DNA of 64,000 nt. It comes from Oliverunavirus OLIVR1 (lineage: Duplodnaviria; Heunggongvirae; Uroviricota; Caudoviricetes; Schitoviridae). Below are positions 1-34,263 of the stretch, piece by piece. How positions within the stretch are numbered: the stretch's first letter is position 1; each line of letters begins with the position of its first letter. Below the pieces are notes generated by a model. The model was not told where the DNA came from. It was given only the letters and a program-made list of their open reading frames with translations, and ran no database searches. A program made the position numbers and the translations under genes. The stretch lies in IMG/VR virus record IMGVR_UViG_2974724996_000001, positions 1-64,000 of that record. One strand, written 5' to 3'.

Positions 1-59
1 ATCAAACTCATTAATATTCTTATTATATAGATAGGGATAAATGGGGGAGGTGTGTCTAT

Positions 60-134
60 TGGAATGTAGCTCAATGGTAGAGCACCTGACTGTTAATCAG
101 GTGGTTCCCGGTTCGAGTCCGGGCTTTCCAGCCA
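60..134 (+). tRNA. tRNA-Asn (anticodon GTT)
   Basis: Cloverleaf read by eye: D-arm gctcaatggtagagc, anticodon stem cctga/tcagg with loop cTGTTaa, T-arm cccgg-ttcgagt-ccggg, 3' CCA encoded; one acceptor mismatch. Confidence 0.75.
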
Positions 135-135
135 A

Positions 136-210
136 TGGCTCTTAGTTCAGTGGTAGAGCGTCAGATTTTGGATCTGGATGTCCTTGGTTCGAGTCCAAGA
201 GAGCCAGCCA
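136..210 (+). tRNA. tRNA-Gln (anticodon TTG)
   Basis: Acceptor tggctct/agagcca perfectly paired, T-arm cttgg-ttcgagt-ccaag, anticodon stem tcaga/tctgg (one G-U) with loop tTTTGga, CCA encoded; lies 1 nt after the previous tRNA. Confidence 0.7.
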
Positions 211-427
211 GTTTAGGAATGATGAAGCGTAAAAGGTAGCGTATGTAGCGAGGGGGAAGGATGATGTCTGGAATTAACCAGTGAACACCTCCGTGAGATT
301 ACCATCATCAGCGTTCATCAGTCCTTGGGAACCAAGAAGCTAAATCCTTTCGTGGATGATAAAGGGCTTGGTTCCCTAAATTTTTCAGAGACCTACAGGG
401 GTTTCGTCACAGTTACCCTGTAGAAGG

Positions 428-470
428 GGGAGCCAAGGAAGTGATTCCGCCTTGGCTCCCTTTTCATTTT
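428..470 (+). terminator. rho-independent terminator (11-bp stem gggagccaagg/ccttggctccc, then T-run)
   Basis: Perfect 11-bp inverted repeat followed by ttttcatttt; downstream of the tRNA pair and upstream of the first CDS. Confidence 0.7.
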
Positions 471-483
471 TAGGAGAACCTCC

Positions 484-915
484 ATGAAACTATTTGATCC
501 TTACGGTTCTCTATCGGCAGCAATGACTGGGATAGAAGTCCATGAAAAACTTTCCCGTGGATCGGGAAGGACACAGACTATGCTGGCAGCAGCAGAAGAC
601 ACAGGCGGCGTAATCATATGTACGCAACAAGCGTATGATGGCATTGTACGTAGGATCAATAGCGTCAATAGACGCAATGATCGTGTTAGAGTTCTAGTTG
701 TGGATCCAACAAAACCCGAGGATATTTATCGAAAGGTAAGACACGGTCCTATCTACTTTGATCATCAATGGATGCTGGAAGTCCATGAGTACCTTATTGT
801 TAGAACAAGTGATTTGTTTTTTCAAATGGTACAAATGATGCCTTCTCCAGATTATAAACATCGCTTCGATGGACCCACTTTCAGTAGTGCGTTCTTGAAT
901 AATCTCACTCCTTAA
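484..915 (+). CDS. hypothetical early protein
   Basis: 143-aa ORF, RBS aggag 6 nt upstream of ATG; no recognisable motif. Confidence 0.55.
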   Translation: MKLFDPYGSLSAAMTGIEVHEKLSRGSGRTQTMLAAAEDTGGVIICTQQAYDGIVRRINSVNRRNDRVRVLVVDPTKPEDIYRKVRHGPIYFDHQWMLEVHEYLIVRTSDLFFQMVQMMPSPDYKHRFDGPTFSSAFLNNLTP

Positions 916-926
916 AGGATACCGCC

Positions 927-1115
927 ATGCTTATGTACTTGGTTCAAGAAGCTTGGCTCCGTGCTAAAGAAAACGGCTACGAGGAAGAACTTCGTATGCT
1001 ACCCGCATTTCAACTAGCAATCGCTCTCCGTGATAAAGATTCTGATATCGGACAATACAGTCTGGAAAAGGTTCTACCTACGGTAATTGATTTCATTAAT
1101 AATGGATACAAGTAA
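927..1115 (+). CDS. hypothetical protein
   Basis: 62-aa ORF tightly packed between neighbouring plus-strand genes. Confidence 0.4.
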   Translation: MLMYLVQEAWLRAKENGYEEELRMLPAFQLAIALRDKDSDIGQYSLEKVLPTVIDFINNGYK

Positions 1116-1522
1116 TGTCTGAAGTAATCATGAAGGGTAATCTTCGGTATACCATCACCTTCAACATCGATCCTAATACAGAACGTAAACATCCTGTCTG
1201 TACCTTTGTAGACGGTCAGCCTTTGGGTCTGCATCGCAATCGTGGCGAGGCTGAACAAGCAATCAACAAAGATTTCTTTTCTCGATCACTTACAGAAGGT
1301 GCACGTTATAGGCATGTAAAGCGTGGTGGCGTTTACACCGTTATTGCAACAGCAAAGCTTCAGGCCGATAATTGGATAACCAATACACTTGAACCCGCCA
1401 CAGTTGATATGACAGAGATGGTTGTTTATCGATCCGAAGATGATCAATCTGTCTGGGTTCACTCAAAAAGTGAATTCATAGACGGTCGTTTTGAAATCAT
1501 TGACGATACACCTGTGCAATAG
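1115..1522 (+). CDS. hypothetical protein
   Basis: 135-aa ORF, start overlaps previous stop (ATGA-type coupling). Confidence 0.5.
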   Translation: MSEVIMKGNLRYTITFNIDPNTERKHPVCTFVDGQPLGLHRNRGEAEQAINKDFFSRSLTEGARYRHVKRGGVYTVIATAKLQADNWITNTLEPATVDMTEMVVYRSEDDQSVWVHSKSEFIDGRFEIIDDTPVQ

Positions 1523-1533
1523 CCATTCTAAAG

Positions 1534-1555
1534 ATTATCCGAATAATCGGATAAT
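1534..1555. promoter_or_regulatory. perfect palindrome attatccga-ataa-tcggataat (9-bp arms, 4-bp spacer); candidate operator
   Basis: Exact inverted repeat seen directly in sequence about 25 nt upstream of the HU gene RBS. Confidence 0.3.
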
Positions 1556-1580
1556 AACCCAGCAATAAGGAAACATTATA

Positions 1581-1853
1581 ATGACAACCCTCGCAAACGT
1601 TGTGTCCACCGTCTCGGAACATTTCGGTATCAGCAAGTCTGAAGTTGAAAAGGTTCTGAAGCAGGGCTTCGAAACCATCAAGTCCGAAGTGGCTGTTGGT
1701 AACGAAGTCAGCATCCCGGGCTTTGGTAAGTTCAGCACGTCTGAACGTGCAGCCCGTGTAGGTCGTAATCCGGCCACCGGTGAGGAAATCCAGATTGCTG
1801 CATCAACGAGCGTGAAGTTCAAGGCTGCAAGCTTGTTCAAGAACGCTCTGTAA
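1581..1853 (+). CDS. hup: HU/IHF-family DNA-binding protein
   Basis: 90 aa; contains the GFGKF...R.GRNP.TGE.I.I signature of bacterial histone-like HU proteins; RBS aggaa. Confidence 0.9.
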   Translation: MTTLANVVSTVSEHFGISKSEVEKVLKQGFETIKSEVAVGNEVSIPGFGKFSTSERAARVGRNPATGEEIQIAASTSVKFKAASLFKNAL

Positions 1854-1884
1854 TACATCCAGTCGTCCCCGCCTCTGGATGTCT

Positions 1885-1929
1885 GGGGAAGAAGGTTCCT
1901 GCCATTTCCTTCTTCCCCTTTCTTTTTTG
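1885..1929 (+). terminator. rho-independent terminator after HU gene
   Basis: 11-bp stem ggggaagaagg/ccttcttcccc followed by tttctttttt. Confidence 0.75.
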
Positions 1930-2460
1930 AATACCCAGTAGAGCGACCTGCTGGGGGTAGACGATCTTCCTCTCTGCTGCCGTGGGGGAATGATCTCGGC
2001 AGGTGGGTGTCTGTTGGTTGACGCTTGGGTTCATACCCCTTGCTACGTTGGTTCAATTCCAACCCCACCTGTTTATAATTTAATTAGATGAGTAAGGCTC
2101 GTGTGGACAAGCGCGCTTTAACAACGTCCTAACCTTGTTCCCTTATAGGAGCGTGCGTCTTGCAAGCCAGTACGTTATGCGGGGGATAGTAAACCTTACT
2201 CTTCTAATTAAATTGGGTTACCCGAGTAATGACGGGTATACCCCTTGGCCTTGGTTCTGGGCCTTATACTCAACCTCGTTCTCGTAGTCTGACGGTGATC
2301 AGAATACTCCGATCCCCTGCTTAGGACATAATGGCAGGTAACCCTGAACCGGGGTCATTTGTATAGTCCAGTACATTGCTGGAAGGTCAAGGGTGGGTCT
2401 TAGCTGGCCAGCATACATGTTATGAAGTGGCTACCTCGTTCAATTCGAGGCATTTCATGT
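1930..2460 (+). other. ORF-free structured region with tRNA-like hairpins
   Basis: No credible ORF; T-arm-like hairpins ttggg-ttcatac-ccc, gttgg-ttcaatt-ccaac (+ acceptor-like caggtgg/ccacctg), cctcg-ttcaatt-cgagg; long-range inverted repeat aatttaattagatgagtaagg (2073-2095) / ccttactcttctaattaaatt (2194-2216). Confidence 0.35.
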
Positions 2461-2491
2461 GACCTGCCTATTTAATTTCTGGAGAAAGATT

Positions 2492-2737
2492 ATGATAGTA
2501 ATCAGGATTGAGCTTCACTCAGCCGTAACCCAAAAGGTTACAGAGCTAGGGCGTATGCACATAGCAAACGATGGTAGCTCTCTTGATCCTACTATCGGCC
2601 ATTATGATGGTAAGGTTCTTCGTAAGCCTGACTTCGTTCGTGAAACACGAACTGCCCATGTCCACGGACACAAGAGGCAGGCACTTACAATATGGCATCT
2701 CCTAGGTAAGATGCTCAAGGAGATGGGTTATGTTTGA
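2492..2737 (+). CDS. hypothetical protein
   Basis: ORF with RBS ggagaaag upstream of ATG 2492 (track start 2459 has no RBS). Confidence 0.4.
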   Translation: MIVIRIELHSAVTQKVTELGRMHIANDGSSLDPTIGHYDGKVLRKPDFVRETRTAHVHGHKRQALTIWHLLGKMLKEMGYV

Positions 2738-3023
2738 TAACATATACAAAGCTTGTTTCGCCATAACGTTAGACTACGGCGGACTTAACCGAGATCGCGG
2801 CGAAGACCAGATCAAGGAAGAGTATGCAGACTTCACGGCAACCTATGAGGCTCGCTATCCCGGTGTAGATCTACCGGCTATTGATGCTTGGTTTGGTTCT
2901 CTGGATGATGAGGCCATGGAGGTCGCCACTGCTGGTGAAGAGTCTGAGATGCAGGCTCTCTTTGAAGACGCCCCCGAAGGAGCGTACACTCTGCTCGAAC
3001 ATTGGTTCGAAGAACATTGCTAA
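2730..3023 (+). CDS. hypothetical acidic protein
   Basis: 97-aa ORF, overlaps previous stop; acidic C-terminus. Confidence 0.45.
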   Translation: MFDNIYKACFAITLDYGGLNRDRGEDQIKEEYADFTATYEARYPGVDLPAIDAWFGSLDDEAMEVATAGEESEMQALFEDAPEGAYTLLEHWFEEHC

Positions 3024-3070
3024 TCACGGTAGGCCACCGTGTAGGGTGTTAAGACAATACCCGGAACGAC

Positions 3071-3137
3071 ATCGCTGTAGCTCAGCCCGGTAGAGCATGT
3101 GCGCACAAGGTCGCTGGTTCAAATCCAGTCAGTGATG
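3071..3137 (+). tRNA. tRNA-like element, degenerate (no canonical anticodon arm)
   Basis: Acceptor atcgctg/cagtgat (one G-U), perfect D-arm gctc-agcccggta-gagc and T-arm gctgg-ttcaaat-ccagt, but only 15 nt (palindrome tgtgcgcaca) where the 17-nt anticodon arm should be; total 67 nt. Confidence 0.35.
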
Positions 3138-3236
3138 TCAATCTATTTCAAATCCATCCTGTGGATGGTAGAGGCCAGCATGTCTGATGCAGGGTTCCCT
3201 AGCGGTGCTGGCCTCGTTCTATTAAGGAAACCCTCC

Positions 3237-3524
3237 ATGATCAGAAAGCTTCTTGATTACTTTCGTAATCGTACTCACAAATATAAAGTCGGTGATCGAG
3301 TAATATTTGTCAACGACTTCGGTGTCGTCTATCTATGGACCATTAGCGAGTTGACCACTTGGGAAACCGCCTCGGGGAAGGTCCTCCCAGCCTATCATCC
3401 CATGGGTACCCAGACACCTTGGTTCCCCTATGAGGAGTCTCGTCTCCATAAAGCCACTGATCTTGATAAGATGAGCACCCCTACCGAGCTTCAAAAGAAG
3501 TATGGCTTCACCCCAACTGAATAG
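3237..3524 (+). CDS. hypothetical protein
   Basis: ORF track 3099-3524; start reset to ATG 3237 (RBS aaggaaa) because upstream part overlaps the tRNA-like element. Confidence 0.4.
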   Translation: MIRKLLDYFRNRTHKYKVGDRVIFVNDFGVVYLWTISELTTWETASGKVLPAYHPMGTQTPWFPYEESRLHKATDLDKMSTPTELQKKYGFTPTE

Positions 3525-3959
3525 TATGGTTGTAAATGAAACCTCCTCATCATGTTCAAAACAAAGCAGTTCGTCCTTCATGGAAACAACTTTTCCGTGA
3601 ACTTAAATGCTCCATCTCTGGACATGTTTTCTATGTGGCATGGGGGAATGGCTACCGTGGTTTACCTCAGTCTCATTGTTTTTGTTGTGGTGTCAAAGGT
3701 CCTTCTGCCATTCCTTCTTGCGAAGAGTGGATAGAACCTATCGGTTGAACCAAAGAAATAAACTACTCCCCGAACGAAGTGAGGGGAAAATTACTTCCAC
3801 TAATATTAATTCGTCCATGAATAATGGATGATAGCCGGGGTAGCCCAAGCACAAGGCAAGAGGTTCTGTGAACAACGGAGATAGTGTGAGTAGGGTGGCT
3901 GATCTTCCTTTCAAGGATGCTCATTCACGAGTCTCACCCCCGGCACCAATTTAATCAAA

Positions 3960-4009
3960 GTGTATCTGATGAGTCCTTATTGGACGAAACGCATTAGGGC
4001 GTCATACAC
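3960..4009 (+). ncRNA. hammerhead ribozyme, type I (stem I open), minimal
   Basis: Stem I gtgtat(3960-3965)/atacac(4004-4009); core CTGATGA 3966-3972; stem II gtcc-ttatt-ggac 3973-3985 (G10.1-C11.1 present); GAAA 3986-3989; stem III cgc-attagg-gcg 3990-4001 closed by A15.1-U16.1; cleavage triplet GUC with C17 at 4003. Confidence 0.7.
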
Positions 4010-4284
4010 ACCTAGTAGAGAGCCACTCTGTGCTGCACGCAGATGAACTATGGGCATGTGGGATTGTTACCGGTAGCAGTCCAAGGGGTATAAGCAGAAT
4101 ACTCAAAGCTCTCACTATTAACTTCAAGGAATGATAGACATGGAATATGATTATTCTGAATATGGTTTTTGTTATGTGTTTCATAAACATAAAGTAGTCT
4201 TCATTTGTAGTCGTATAATTACAGAAGGATATCTATCCGCAGGTAGTATTCAATATGAGCAAGACACATTAGGAGAATAATATT

Positions 4285-4518
4285 ATGTCTAATGAACTTA
4301 CGTTAACTGAGCACCGTCAAGAATACATACATGCTAAACGTTTTTACGAAGAGGCAAACGTAAATAAACTAACGCCTCACGTAGCAAAGCATGAAGCACG
4401 GCTTATGGAGTATCATGCACTTTCCATTGTACATTGGGAATGGCGTAATACACCTCTTCCTATCTCGAAAGCAGACTTCCTTTCGCTTAAATCTTTGCAA
4501 GATAAAGCAGGTTTGTAA
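4285..4518 (+). CDS. hypothetical protein
   Basis: 77-aa ORF, RBS taggag upstream. Confidence 0.5.
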   Translation: MSNELTLTEHRQEYIHAKRFYEEANVNKLTPHVAKHEARLMEYHALSIVHWEWRNTPLPISKADFLSLKSLQDKAGL

Positions 4519-4583
4519 GGAATAACATTACTTAAGTAATCCTTATATAGATTATTGTGCATATATTTTTTGGAGACAAATAA

Positions 4584-4662
4584 CCAAGGGTAGTTCAACT
4601 GGTAGAACCCCGGGTAGGTAGCTCCTATCTGGTATATGGAAGTTCAAATCTTCCCCCTTGGG
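4584..4662 (+). tRNA. tRNA-like element, anticodon unassigned
   Basis: Perfect acceptor ccaaggg/cccttgg, D-arm gttc-aactggta-gaac, T-arm ggaag-ttcaaat-cttcc; 29-nt middle lacks a canonical 5-bp/7-nt anticodon arm (best: ggtag-gTAGCtc-ctatc). Confidence 0.4.
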
Positions 4663-4754
4663 CCTCACTAATATTATATTAGTAATCCAGTAGATGATAG
4701 TCTTACAGATGTCAGAGGGTAGGGTACACTGGGGCGCAAGCCCCATAAACTTAA

Positions 4755-4769
4755 GTACCCCCCGGGTAC
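4755..4769 (+). promoter_or_regulatory. hairpin gtaccc-ccc-gggtac (6-bp stem, 3-nt loop); candidate N4-type vRNAP early-promoter hairpin
   Basis: Seen in sequence 80 nt upstream of gene 4848; N4 virion RNAP promoters are 5-7 bp stems with 3-nt loops carrying a central G on the template strand (here the template loop would be GGG). Confidence 0.25.
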
Positions 4770-4847
4770 ACCCCCTATACACTGACCATGGGTACCCCCA
4801 TTCAGTCGCTCCGCTCCTTCTAGTCGCAGCTTAAGGAGCACATCATC

Positions 4848-5189
4848 ATGGCATCATCCATCACTCAGACCTTCGGTAAGGTCCTCAACACCATCGGTAC
4901 AGTAGCTGATGCAGCTACCAAAACCGTAGACAACGTAGCAGCAGGACTGGACATGCTCGACATGTTCGTCATGACTGCAAAGCAGAAGCAGGAAGCGCGT
5001 ACCGCAGCTGACATGCATACGTTCTATGACGATCTTCAGAACGAAGTAGCTCTTGAGAATGCACTCAAGGCTGAACAACTGGAAATCGCATTGAACAATA
5101 ATGCACAGTTGAAGAAACACTTCACCAACCAGCATGAAAAACTTAACTCTGTCATCAACAAGGTTCGTACCAAGTATAACCCTGAATAA
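4848..5189 (+). CDS. hypothetical protein
   Basis: 113-aa ORF with strong RBS aaggagcac; alanine/coiled-coil-rich. Confidence 0.6.
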   Translation: MASSITQTFGKVLNTIGTVADAATKTVDNVAAGLDMLDMFVMTAKQKQEARTAADMHTFYDDLQNEVALENALKAEQLEIALNNNAQLKKHFTNQHEKLNSVINKVRTKYNPE

Positions 5190-5295
5190 CAAATTGGTCT
5201 CTGAGAAATCGGAGACCGAAATCCTTAATTAGATAGTTCTAGTTAATAATCTACTAAGATTATTAGATAGCATTATCTTAAAATGGAGAAATAAA

Positions 5296-5511
5296 ATGGC
5301 AAATGAAATCCATCCAGAAAAAATCAATGAAAACTCTAAACTTGGAGAAAAACTCCGAAAATTCAGAGATTATCTGAAAGCAGTGAGACCACATTCACAT
5401 AAAGAAATTCTCTGGGATTTCCTCGCTGCAATCGTCATCAATATCGCTGAAGGAGTATCCTTCGAAGATATGCTCAAGGAGATTGAATTCTTCTCCGAAC
5501 ACAAGGATTGA
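5296..5511 (+). CDS. hypothetical protein
   Basis: 71-aa ORF, RBS ggag. Confidence 0.45.
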   Translation: MANEIHPEKINENSKLGEKLRKFRDYLKAVRPHSHKEILWDFLAAIVINIAEGVSFEDMLKEIEFFSEHKD

Positions 5512-5517
5512 TCCAAA

Positions 5518-5706
5518 ATGATCCCTCAGAAGCCTGTGCCTTGTGCACATATCGCAGACTATTATGAATGGAAAATCTATCACCTTGGTGAGAGAAATCT
5601 CGGTAATACCTTGTTGTACAAGGGATACCTTCATTGGGCTGCTGGCTTCATTGAGGGTTATTGGAATAACCTCTATCGTGCAGTCATTACCATTAGGAGA
5701 GTATAA
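5518..5706 (+). CDS. hypothetical protein
   Basis: 62-aa ORF. Confidence 0.4.
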   Translation: MIPQKPVPCAHIADYYEWKIYHLGERNLGNTLLYKGYLHWAAGFIEGYWNNLYRAVITIRRV

Positions 5707-5900
5707 TGGGCTTTAAAAGAATAGCGGGAATGTATCCGCATAAACACACCAAACGTAGATTTTATCGTTGGGCGGGAAAAAATCTTGGTGCGATTGTTGT
5801 AAAACACGAACGTATTATTCGAGATTATAAAGGTAATCTCTGGACTATTCGTACCTTCGTAGATGGTAAAATACTAATGATATCACGAGTATGGACATAA
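5706..5900 (+). CDS. hypothetical protein
   Basis: 64-aa ORF overlapping previous stop. Confidence 0.4.
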   Translation: MGFKRIAGMYPHKHTKRRFYRWAGKNLGAIVVKHERIIRDYKGNLWTIRTFVDGKILMISRVWT

Positions 5901-5997
5901 CCATCAATCTCACCACTACAGCAGCAGGCTGTATCAGCACTTCCGTTGTAATTATTGCACTAATTATTGGTGTAATATCTGCCTTTAAGGGATAAAC

Positions 5998-6177
5998 ATG
6001 AGACTCCTCAAACATCAATATGACTACAAGTTCGATGATCCCATTGAGGATCAAGAAGAACTTCCGGAAGAACTTGATGAAATCCTGAACCAAAGGAAAA
6101 GAAATGCTCAAGGCAAACTTCGCGGTATGGACCGCAGGAATGACCCTTCTCGTCGTAATAGCTCTAACCGTAAGTAA
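5998..6177 (+). CDS. hypothetical small acidic/basic protein (59 aa)
   Basis: ORF below track cutoff; RBS aaggga before ATG 5998; fills gap between plus-strand genes. Confidence 0.3.
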   Translation: MRLLKHQYDYKFDDPIEDQEELPEELDEILNQRKRNAQGKLRGMDRRNDPSRRNSSNRK

Positions 6178-6245
6178 TAACGGAATGAGCAATTGCTTGA
6201 ACAATCACAGCAGGGATACCTGCGTTAACCTCTTGAGGTAAGGTA

Positions 6246-6440
6246 ATGGAATTCTGGCAACTTGTTGCAACTGGTATCCTTCTGCATCTAGCAACTGCTT
6301 ACTACCTAATACAGTTGATGGGTGCTCTTGATAGGATGAGGGTATTTGGTGGAACCATAACTATTGGTCTCTTCCCTCTCATCATCGTAGCAACCACTAT
6401 TGTATGGTGGTGCTACTTGTTGTTCGGATATAAAGCATGA
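6246..6440 (+). CDS. small membrane protein (two predicted TM helices)
   Basis: 64-aa hydrophobic ORF, RBS gaggtaagg. Confidence 0.45.
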   Translation: MEFWQLVATGILLHLATAYYLIQLMGALDRMRVFGGTITIGLFPLIIVATTIVWWCYLLFGYKA

Positions 6441-6778
6441 GAAGTCTCAGCGCTAACAGCTATGACATAGCTATCTTGAACCAACTGAAAATGCTCAAGC
6501 TTAGGCTTGAACTCAAAGAACCACCAGCAACAGGCATATGTGATTTTGTTAAATCACCCTTCACAGAACTTCAGTGGTCTGAGGTACGTGATAGGTTGGA
6601 AAAGGCAATGGCTACATGGCCTAATCATTCTGGCGATATGGTGTTCCCTGTTGAGGGAACATCCTACAATTACTGGCGTAATGAGCAGTTTCGGTGGGAT
6701 CCAAAAAATGAATACGGGGCAAAACGTATTGCCCTTCTTGATTACCTCTATAATTACTTCAAAAATGCAGTGAGCTAA
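6437..6778 (+). CDS. hypothetical protein
   Basis: 113-aa ORF, overlapping start/stop with previous gene. Confidence 0.5.
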   Translation: MRSLSANSYDIAILNQLKMLKLRLELKEPPATGICDFVKSPFTELQWSEVRDRLEKAMATWPNHSGDMVFPVEGTSYNYWRNEQFRWDPKNEYGAKRIALLDYLYNYFKNAVS

Positions 6779-6830
6779 TAACCATTGCGTTTTTGTGGTT
6801 TAGACATCCTGACGTGAAAGGTAAACATCA

Positions 6831-6977
6831 ATGAAATTCCGTGTTCACTACGTCCTCGAAGGCGAAAAATACACCAAGGACGTTGAAGCTGATCGTCCTG
6901 AAGACGCAGCAAAACATGTTCGGAAAACGGTGCAAGGTGCCATCGTTTCCAAAACCAAGGTAGTGCGCGAAGCATAG
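6831..6977 (+). CDS. hypothetical small protein (48 aa)
   Basis: ATG 6831 preceded by aaaggtaaaca; short, low support. Confidence 0.25.
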   Translation: MKFRVHYVLEGEKYTKDVEADRPEDAAKHVRKTVQGAIVSKTKVVREA

Positions 6978-7039
6978 TCGCTCCGCTCCTATTAGAGGAA
7001 TAATCCTCGACCTAACCATGAAATATTAAGGAGATTATC

Positions 7040-7438
7040 ATGGGCATTCTCGACACACTCAACGCACGCAACAACTCTTCTGCTGGTCGTTCGGCAGCTA
7101 ACGGCTCTCAGCAGGATCGTCCTGTTGCACAGACGTGGATGAACATCGGTTATGAAGCGAACGGTCAGTTCGTCAATCTGCCGCTGGGCCTCGCCATCGA
7201 CACCATGGAACCCATCAACATCCGTGGCCAGAACGAAGAGTTCGTTGCTCTTCAGACGGCACGTAATGAACTCCTGAAGGAAATTCAGGAACTGGGTGAC
7301 AAACTGGAACCCGGTGCGGTTCTCACACTGCCGCTGACCATCCAGATTCGTCGTGTCAATGACAAGGTGGTCGTTGACAGCGAAAGCAACCCGTTCAGCA
7401 TGGCAAATGCTGGTCTCAAGCTCGTCGCTGCTGAATAA
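7040..7438 (+). CDS. hypothetical protein
   Basis: 132-aa ORF with RBS taaggag; followed by terminator. Confidence 0.6.
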   Translation: MGILDTLNARNNSSAGRSAANGSQQDRPVAQTWMNIGYEANGQFVNLPLGLAIDTMEPINIRGQNEEFVALQTARNELLKEIQELGDKLEPGAVLTLPLTIQIRRVNDKVVVDSESNPFSMANAGLKLVAAE

Positions 7439-34148: not shown

Positions 34149-34162
34149 TCCCCTGTTTCATA

Positions 34163-34263
34163 ATTGAGTGGCAGAGTGGCTTAATGCTGACGCGAAGGAA
34201 GACTGGATGGGTGAGCTACGCCTCTATACTCGCCAGCCGTGGGTTCAAATCCCATCTCAATTT
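34163..34263 (+). other. tRNA-like element (acceptor aattgag/ctcaatt plus T-arm gtggg-ttcaaat-cccat), 101 nt, too long for a canonical tRNA
   Basis: Seen in sequence; the 70-nt region between acceptor and T-arm has no canonical D or anticodon arms. Confidence 0.3.

Follow-up and report, generated by a model that had tools for sequence, protein, structure and literature searches.

Hammerhead ribozymes of all three types are common in bacteria, especially in prophages, and often flank genes; the set described in 2011 includes an Agrobacterium tumefaciens cluster that cleaves in vitro, and processing of long phage transcripts was proposed as a role (Perreault et al., 2011, PMC3088659). Hammerhead cleavage leaves an upstream product that ends in a 2',3'-cyclic phosphate and a downstream product that starts with a 5'-OH, and a 2019 review regards the function of these ribozymes in bacteria and phages as not yet defined (PMC6765202). 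In a 2026 preprint, type I hammerheads were characterized as motifs usually encoded in the DNA of bacteria, bacteriophages or metazoans, and phage matches were set aside as already described (10.1101/2024.05.16.594327). Theta ribozymes, which are minimal HDV-like motifs, are small self-cleaving RNAs found a few nucleotides from phage tRNA genes; their cleavage site lies at the 5' edge of the motif, and they were proposed to trim the 3' trailers of tRNAs (PMC10879173). Type I hammerheads are also present in RNA genomes, where they lie just before ORFs and yield subgenomic RNAs with a 5'-OH. In the tRNA cluster of phage T4, the stable RNAs C and D (~120-140 nt) are co-transcribed with the tRNAs and released by processing.

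Most bacterial and phage hammerheads adjoin genes, a context in which a cut is open to many readings. The hammerhead analyzed here, from Agrobacterium phage OLIVR1, instead leads a conserved structured RNA that we designated X. Like the hammerheads of 2011, it is DNA-encoded and intergenic in a phage transcription unit, and Agrobacterium is a host genus in both cases. However, those examples, compared here by their description, flank protein genes, often with several copies per operon, whereas the OLIVR1 hammerhead is a single copy in 64 kb, belongs to a lytic N4-like phage and leads a non-coding RNA (PMC3088659). We consider it likely that the ribozyme is functional in the rightward early unit of OLIVR1, where it would make the 5' end of X, and that ribozyme and X form one cassette.

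The window, a stretch of 64,000 nucleotides, corresponds to OLIVR1 (MT234338.1; Schitoviridae, Oliverunavirus), with 100% identity over positions 3000-5000, and window coordinates are equal to genome coordinates. In the paper on the OLIVR phages, which makes no mention of a ribozyme, an N4-like architecture with four tRNAs was reported (PMC10132094). The hammerhead is unannotated in the GenBank record of OLIVR1, in which all genes annotated between 1 and 8000 are on the + strand. A homologue of OLIVR1 gp26 (7040-7438) is annotated as gp2 (754-1038) in the record of phage N4. Since N4 gp2 is an early protein, the hammerhead site, which is located in the expanded left-end region, is presumably early. 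No terminator-like and no sigma-70-like promoter sequence adjoins the hammerhead on the + strand. In both OLIVR1 (window 1-7040) and Rhizobium phage RHph_Y38 (hereafter Y38), the N4 gp2 homologue is preceded by ~7 kb that hold small ORFs, tRNAs and non-coding RNA; in N4 itself, the gp2 gene is found already at 754-1038. The initial annotation of this DNA had placed the hammerhead in a 760-bp ORF-free spacer. This was overstated: the small ORFs gp11-gp14 are annotated in GenBank at 3552-4280, ORFs of 60-74 aa are present at 3536-3831, and the stretch that lacks credible coding is confined to ~3832-4130.

The type I hammerhead extends over 3960..4009 on the + strand and reads GUGUAU-CUGAUGA-GUCC-UUAUU-GGAC-GAA-A-CGC-AUUAGG-GCG-U-C/AUACAC, with the slash marking the predicted cut. 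Stem I is formed by 6 bp (GUGUAU/AUACAC, 3960-3965 with 4004-4009) and is followed by the core CUGAUGA (C3-A9, 3966-3972), which aligns to the RF00163 consensus. The 4-bp stem II (GUCC/GGAC) with its loop UUAUU covers 3973-3985, G10.1-C11.1 being G3973-C3985, and G12, A13 and A14 follow at 3986-3988. The stem III hairpin (3989-4002) consists of A15.1-U16.1 (A3989-U4002), CGC/GCG and the loop AUUAGG. Position 17 is C4003, hence not a G, as expected of a hammerhead, and the geometry of the motif predicts self-cleavage between C17 and A1.1 (4003..4004). Stem I is open, stems II and III are closed by loops and the cut lies near the 3' end of the motif, which is the topology of type I. On either side of the 6-bp stem I there is an A residue (3959 and 4010) that proved invariant in the phage class described below. 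The minimum-free-energy fold calculated with RNAfold reproduces all three helices. The energy of this fold is ordinary (z = -1.2 against shuffles), and none of the folding energies calculated here is better than those of shuffles (z -0.4 to -1.2). Support for the structure is therefore comparative only.

The best Rfam match is RF00163 (hammerhead type I, clan CL00010), with which the OLIVR1 motif shares the catalytic core, the three-helix junction, the open stem I and the cut after C17. The match is end-to-end and reaches 31.4 bits (E=2.2e-5 on 1.8 kb, 3.9e-6 on 311 nt, about 8e-4 when scaled to the whole window). It differs from the family in the peripheral signature of the phage class and in its score, since 34 bits would be needed to reach the gathering threshold. 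With default (gathering) thresholds, Rfam reported only tRNAs and no hammerhead in the window; the match appears only with E-value reporting. Type I hammerheads of eukaryotic satellites and retroelements lack the longer, stable stem III present in OLIVR1. A loose descriptor, which required CUGANGA and minimum lengths of 3 bp for stems II and III and of 5 bp for stem I, matched the real window solely at 3960-4009, and matched 1 of 1000 dinucleotide-shuffled windows. With a purpose-built covariance model, no second hammerhead was found in the 64-kb window and none in six related Rhizobiales Schitoviridae. The hammerhead at 3960-4009 is thus confirmed as genuine, beyond chance, and the predicted ribozyme is probably active. 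The initial annotation had described the invariant positions and the three helices, had called a chance match very unlikely and had proposed that a type I hammerhead in the + strand transcript of an N4-like early region is cut after C4003. These points agree with the sequence and the minimum-free-energy fold and are supported by the shuffle test and the RF00163 E-value. The covariance-model match that it expected was also obtained, but under the gathering score.

Relatives of the locus were sought by blastn with 2 kb around the hammerhead against 50,697 phage records. Besides OLIVR1-3, only the Rhizobium phages RHph_Y38, RHEph22 and RHEph24 were matched, and these at window 3958-4021 only. The three belong to a subfamily of the Schitoviridae other than that of OLIVR1, and two of them, RHph_Y38 and RHEph22, are placed in Demetervirinae, Acanvirus. 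The ribozyme of the three Rhizobium phages reads GUGUAU-CUGAUGA-GAUC-UUAUU-GAUC-GAAA-CGC-UUAA-GCG-UC-AUACAC. It differs from the OLIVR1 hammerhead only in two compensated stem II pairs (U-A to A-U and C-G to U-A) and in the stem III loop, and the core is unchanged. The compensatory stem changes in related phages that the initial annotation had proposed to look for are thereby found in stem II. Ribozyme and X are the sole nucleotide similarity between the early regions of OLIVR1 and Y38 (word-7 blast). Such a combination of compensated stem II and diverged flanks is what selection on a working hammerhead would be expected to leave.

The OLIVR1 and Rhizobium phage ribozymes carry the signature of a larger phage class, consisting of an A, a 6-bp stem I, a 4-bp stem II, a 5-nt UNNNU loop and a further A. 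Scanning IMG/VR with the pattern CTGATGAGNNNTTATTNNNCGAAA yielded 73 loci. Perfect type I hammerheads made up 50 of the 52 distinct sequences. At least five of the six stem I pairs are formed in each of these 50, and all six in 49; stem II has 4 bp, stem III varies, and the triplet is mostly GUC. An A was present on both sides of stem I in 52 of 52, and the pattern did not demand these bases. In an alignment of 22 class sequences, 99.4% of the cells are paired and double-sided changes occur in 12 of 14 pairs. The covariation score of this alignment is 0.81, compared to 0.16 in shuffles (0 of 500 shuffles were as high), and the covariation is lost when partners are shifted by 1-3 columns; A15.1-U16.1, position 17 and G10.1-C11.1 are invariant. 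A second scan of IMG/VR, in which the loop was left free, often revealed two or three hammerheads per contig among the matches listed. Among these matches the loops conform to UNNNU, with UUAUU, UUAAU and UCAAU as the commonest, the count of UUAUU being inflated by pooling with the loci of the first scan, whose pattern fixed that loop. In the same wider pooled set, the base after stem I is an A in 172 of 181 among the matches listed.

With its 6-bp stem I between A3959 and A4010, its 4-bp stem II and its UUAUU loop, the OLIVR1 hammerhead has all features of the class. Class members score 25-36 bits on RF00163. The value for OLIVR1, although under the threshold, is therefore typical and reflects a property of the model rather than counter-evidence; the RF00163 threshold excludes most of the class, yet this is no argument against hammerhead identity. 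Together, the invariant A residues beside stem I, the stems of fixed length and the constraint on loop II suggest a conserved peripheral contact, and the OLIVR1 motif would accordingly be a natural hammerhead stabilized by tertiary contacts. The designation as minimal in the initial annotation is for that reason not supported, given that stem I has exactly 6 bp and lies between two A residues and that a UNNNU loop caps a 4-bp stem II. Its claim of novelty also went too far, because type I hammerheads of phages and prophages, including an Agrobacterium prophage, have been on record since 2011 (PMC3088659). Thus, the OLIVR1 ribozyme is an ordinary member of an abundant, under-annotated phage class that is already known. 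What is unusual is its context, in that the hammerhead is followed not by a gene but by a conserved, structured RNA that is non-coding.

Additional arrangements were observed within the class. Many phage contigs in IMG/VR carry two or three class hammerheads within 1-2 kb among the matches listed, and most of these multi-copy hammerheads score below the RF00163 gathering threshold, so that default Rfam annotation misses them. In the marine phage IMG/VR UViG_3300034375_003182 (587-966), two class hammerheads are located 325 nt apart, with ~290 ORF-free nt between them, and about eight near-identical contigs carry the same arrangement. From its sequence, the marine pair looks like a ribozyme-flanked non-coding RNA, which would mean that the class can delimit non-coding RNA. 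A large class of phage hammerheads with strong covariation, whose scores fall slightly short of the Rfam threshold, stays unannotated, as it did in the OLIVR1 GenBank record.

A chance match, a decayed and inactive motif, or a signal at the DNA level such as a promoter hairpin or an origin might also be considered. N4-like phages do use DNA hairpin promoters, the RF00163 score lies under the gathering cut-off and the thermodynamic z-scores are unremarkable. However, the descriptor found a match in just one of 1000 shuffled windows, and across subfamilies whose flanks have otherwise fully diverged the core remains perfect and stem II shows compensated changes. Moreover, the motif matches a strongly covarying class whose other members have equally modest scores on RF00163 (25-36 bits), and G-U pairs exist in the + strand RNA only. 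Taken together, we regard chance, decay or a DNA signal as extremely improbable.

The predicted downstream product of cleavage begins with X, a conserved structured non-coding RNA of ~115 nt (4004..4117, + strand) that was delimited by the Y38 alignment and a consensus fold. From 4004 on, a 5' tail of 9 nt (AUACACACC) is single-stranded in the fold. In the consensus fold, helix P1 pairs 4013-4016 with 4114-4117 and 4018-4023 with 4108-4113. The P2 hairpin (4024-4045) was obtained at the same place in separate folds of both phages and is followed by an invariant joiner, (A)CUAUGGGCAUGUG(GG), at ~4046-4062. The P3 hairpin (4061-4082), a block CCAAGGGG that lies after P3 and overlaps its 3' end, and the P4 region (4086-4104) complete the RNA. 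Counted from the cleavage site, the blocks conserved between the OLIVR1 and Y38 groups are AUACACACCUAGUAGAGA, CUAUGGGCAUGUGGG, CCAAGGGG, UAAG..GAAUA..CAAAG and UCUCACUAUU. The joining regions are 100% identical between OLIVR1 and Y38, and the hairpins between the blocks differ in sequence with their pairing kept. As calculated with RNAalifold, P1 is a 10-bp closing helix with one compensated and one half-compensated pair, and P3 has 7 bp with four compensated pairs (5 compensated pairs in the X consensus overall). The same architecture recurs when the OLIVR1 and Y38 sequences are folded separately. Owing to G-U pairs in P2 and P3, the structure of X is specific to the + strand RNA. X is represented by only two distinct sequences, on which its proposed structure rests, and both this structure and any function of X are thinly supported.

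Folding of 3826-4130 revealed three independent domains, namely a cloverleaf-like element, the hammerhead and X. The ribozyme and the closing helix of X are 3 nt (ACC) apart in both phages and form separate, adjacent domains. An alternative pairing of X with stem I as a regulator of the ribozyme was considered and rejected; only 4 bp were found by eye, and the minimum-free-energy folds keep the domains apart.

X was also considered as a protein-coding sequence. The frame shared by OLIVR1 and Y38 comprises only LWACG and PRG and is then broken by a 20-nt indel, and this reading was rejected. A 34-aa ORF with a GTG start, annotated as gp13 (4030-4134, + strand), lies inside X and is not conserved as a protein in Y38. 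Because of the broken frame, gp13 is probably an annotation artefact and no gene. Against Rfam 15, X gave no match at E up to 10 in OLIVR1 and only a spurious mir-10 match in Y38. The 15-mer CTATGGGCATGTGGG had 34 matches in IMG/VR, all of them chance. A first two-block pattern had 0 matches in metagenome and genome collections, and a second had 30 and 41 matches, which lie in coding regions or in GC-rich repeats like actinobacterial DnaA boxes and bear no resemblance to X. An nhmmer search over all collected loci found nothing, and blastn against phages and plasmids found nothing new. Consequently, no homologue of X was found across IMG/VR, JGI metagenomes, GTDB genomes, INPHARED phages and PLSDB plasmids, and X appears to be new as far as the searched databases and Rfam 15 show.

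Ribozyme and X are both absent from six other Rhizobiales Schitoviridae (RHEph16, Y2_6, I1_6, N38, ort11 and X2_28B). Among these, RHEph16 and Y2_6 are close relatives of Y38. Between tRNA-Pro and tRNA-Gln, the phages that lack the two elements have other sequence. Since both elements are missing together in these relatives, they were gained or lost together as a cassette. Conservation of ribozyme and X could stem partly from horizontal transfer rather than from long-term selection. The only protein common to the OLIVR1 and Y38 early regions is the homologue of the N4 protein annotated gp2, and X therefore has no conserved protein neighbour. When relatives were collected by way of the neighbouring gp49-like protein, 80 unrelated phage loci were obtained, none of them with a hammerhead. 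In RHEph16, Y2_6, I1_6 and N38, a different conserved stretch with compensated hairpin changes (…UCCAAWGGUGGUAGGGAU…CUAUCCACCAGAG…) lies upstream of tRNA-Gln, at ~1760-1830 in the RHEph16 locus and at ~2000-2080 in the I1_6 locus examined. Different small structured RNAs seem to occupy the spacer between tRNA-Pro and tRNA-Gln, which would make it a variable site.

Upstream of the ribozyme, a cloverleaf-like element of 115 nt (3834..3948, + strand) was recognized by its sequence, its four-way junction fold and the Y38 alignment. A 7-bp helix (GCCGGGG/CCCCGGC) closes it, with A and CCA coming next, and U8-A9-like bases are also present. The element occupies the place of the Y38 tRNA-Pro and aligns to the 3' end of that tRNA (...ACCAAUU). 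As a tRNA it was rejected, as ARAGORN made no call even with introns allowed and thresholds lowered. Nor did it match any Rfam family, the tRNA model searched at E up to 10 included. Its tRNA likeness is limited to the acceptor-like helix, the ACCA and U8-A9, and the element is only tentatively termed tRNA-like. In OLIVR3 (MT234340.1), a 77-bp tandem duplication of window 3798-3874 covers the 5' part of this element, and ribozyme and X are unchanged despite the duplication.

The Y38 ribozyme starts 6 nt downstream of the tRNA-Pro(UGG) CCA, and the OLIVR1 ribozyme 11 nt past the ...A-CCA end of 3834-3948. Such spacing would fit a ribozyme that matures the upstream tRNA or tRNA-like element, by analogy to theta ribozymes next to phage tRNAs, which were proposed as processors of 3' trailers (PMC10879173). 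The geometry is the opposite of that of theta, which has another fold: the OLIVR1 hammerhead cuts at its 3' edge, so that a structured trailer of ~55-60 nt with a cyclic phosphate would remain on the upstream RNA, and it is the 5' end of the downstream RNA that is defined. In addition, no tRNA was found within 1.5 kb of ~50 other class members, and the upstream element of OLIVR1 is not recognized as a tRNA. Maturation of the upstream RNA is therefore very unlikely to be the role of the ribozyme. What the placements of theta and of the OLIVR1 hammerhead may have in common, as the analogy suggests, is the formation of RNA ends independently of host RNases.

A further possibility is that the hammerhead is real and that X is only the structured 5' leader of a gp14-gp15 mRNA, which would be a message with a 5'-OH protected by a hairpin. 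In the IMG/VR class, the next ORF starts at a median of 25 nt from the cleavage site (mostly 17-41 nt), and processing of polycistronic phage transcripts has been proposed in the literature (PMC3088659, PMC6765202). This usual context is paralleled by the type I hammerheads of RNA genomes, which share the longer helix III. However, those genomes depend on eukaryotic translation, and conserved loop-loop contacts are reported to be lacking in their hammerheads; nor is the OLIVR1 copy adjacent to an ORF. By ORF analysis, the earliest plausible downstream ORF is gp14 (49 aa, 4131..4280, + strand), with AAGGA just upstream of its start, and gp15 (4285-4518, + strand) is the next. The start of gp14 lies right after X and 127 nt past the cut, a distance that departs from the class as a whole. 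In Y38, RHEph22 and RHEph24, no ORF of at least 40 aa starts within 400 nt of the cut; X is followed there by more non-coding sequence and tRNA-Gln. Neither gp14 nor gp15 has a homologue in the Y38 early region. Given the absence of both genes and of any nearby ORF in Y38, what is conserved is X and not a downstream gene, and we judge a mere leader role to be unlikely. The initial annotation had the ribozyme cut the transcript ahead of the gene at 4285. The downstream direction holds, but it was overlooked that the product starts with a conserved structured non-coding RNA.

We favour a ribozyme that defines the 5' end of X. In this model, the ribozyme would fold on its own during synthesis of a long transcript running through the site, beside the two other independently folding domains, and would cut the early transcript between C4003 and A4004. 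The upstream fragment would keep nearly the whole ribozyme together with the 3834-3948 element and would end in a 2',3'-cyclic phosphate. The downstream fragment would start with a 5'-OH 9 nt before the closing helix of X, and in OLIVR1 the gp14-gp15 message would lie behind X. After a type I cut, nearly the entire motif remains with the 5' product and only six stem I bases go with the 3' product, so that such a hammerhead is suited to defining the 5' end of a downstream RNA. In bacteria, 5'-monophosphate-dependent decay by RNase E and RNase J should act poorly on a 5'-OH end, and a cyclic phosphate should hinder 3' exonucleases on the upstream piece. Both types of end may be protective here. 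The ribozyme would then be a host-independent maker of the 5' end of X, unlike the processing of T4 RNAs C and D, which is performed by host RNases and not by a ribozyme. A cassette of ribozyme and X would have been retained in two distant groups of Rhizobiales Schitoviridae.

More tentatively, hammerhead and X could constitute a self-contained cassette open to horizontal exchange, whose non-coding RNA would receive its 5'-OH end without host RNases and act early, for example as a decoy, sponge or regulator of a host factor. In that case, X would represent a new RNA class, and phage type I hammerheads would gain a second role as makers of 5' ends for non-coding RNAs, of which the marine pair flanking ~290 ORF-free nt would be another instance. 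Because the cassette is found in cultivable lytic phages of Agrobacterium and Rhizobium, it offers a clean, testable case for RNA ends made by a ribozyme.

Several unusual tRNA genes were noted elsewhere in the window, all on the + strand. At 3071-3137, a tRNA-like gene matches the Rfam tRNA model with 52 bits and lacks an anticodon loop (UGUGC is directly followed by GCACA); it was not called by ARAGORN and overlaps the start of the gp10 ORF. The match at 4584-4664 has a 15-nt insert in the anticodon region and was called Ala or Arg with an intron by ARAGORN and Thr in GenBank. A weak tRNA match with a long insert (34.5 bits) is located at 34162-34263. In the late region, the tRNA at 40274-40350 has an enlarged anticodon loop, for which ARAGORN gave a four-base anticodon, 'ccta', with no amino-acid assignment; this tRNA could be an amber or quadruplet suppressor.
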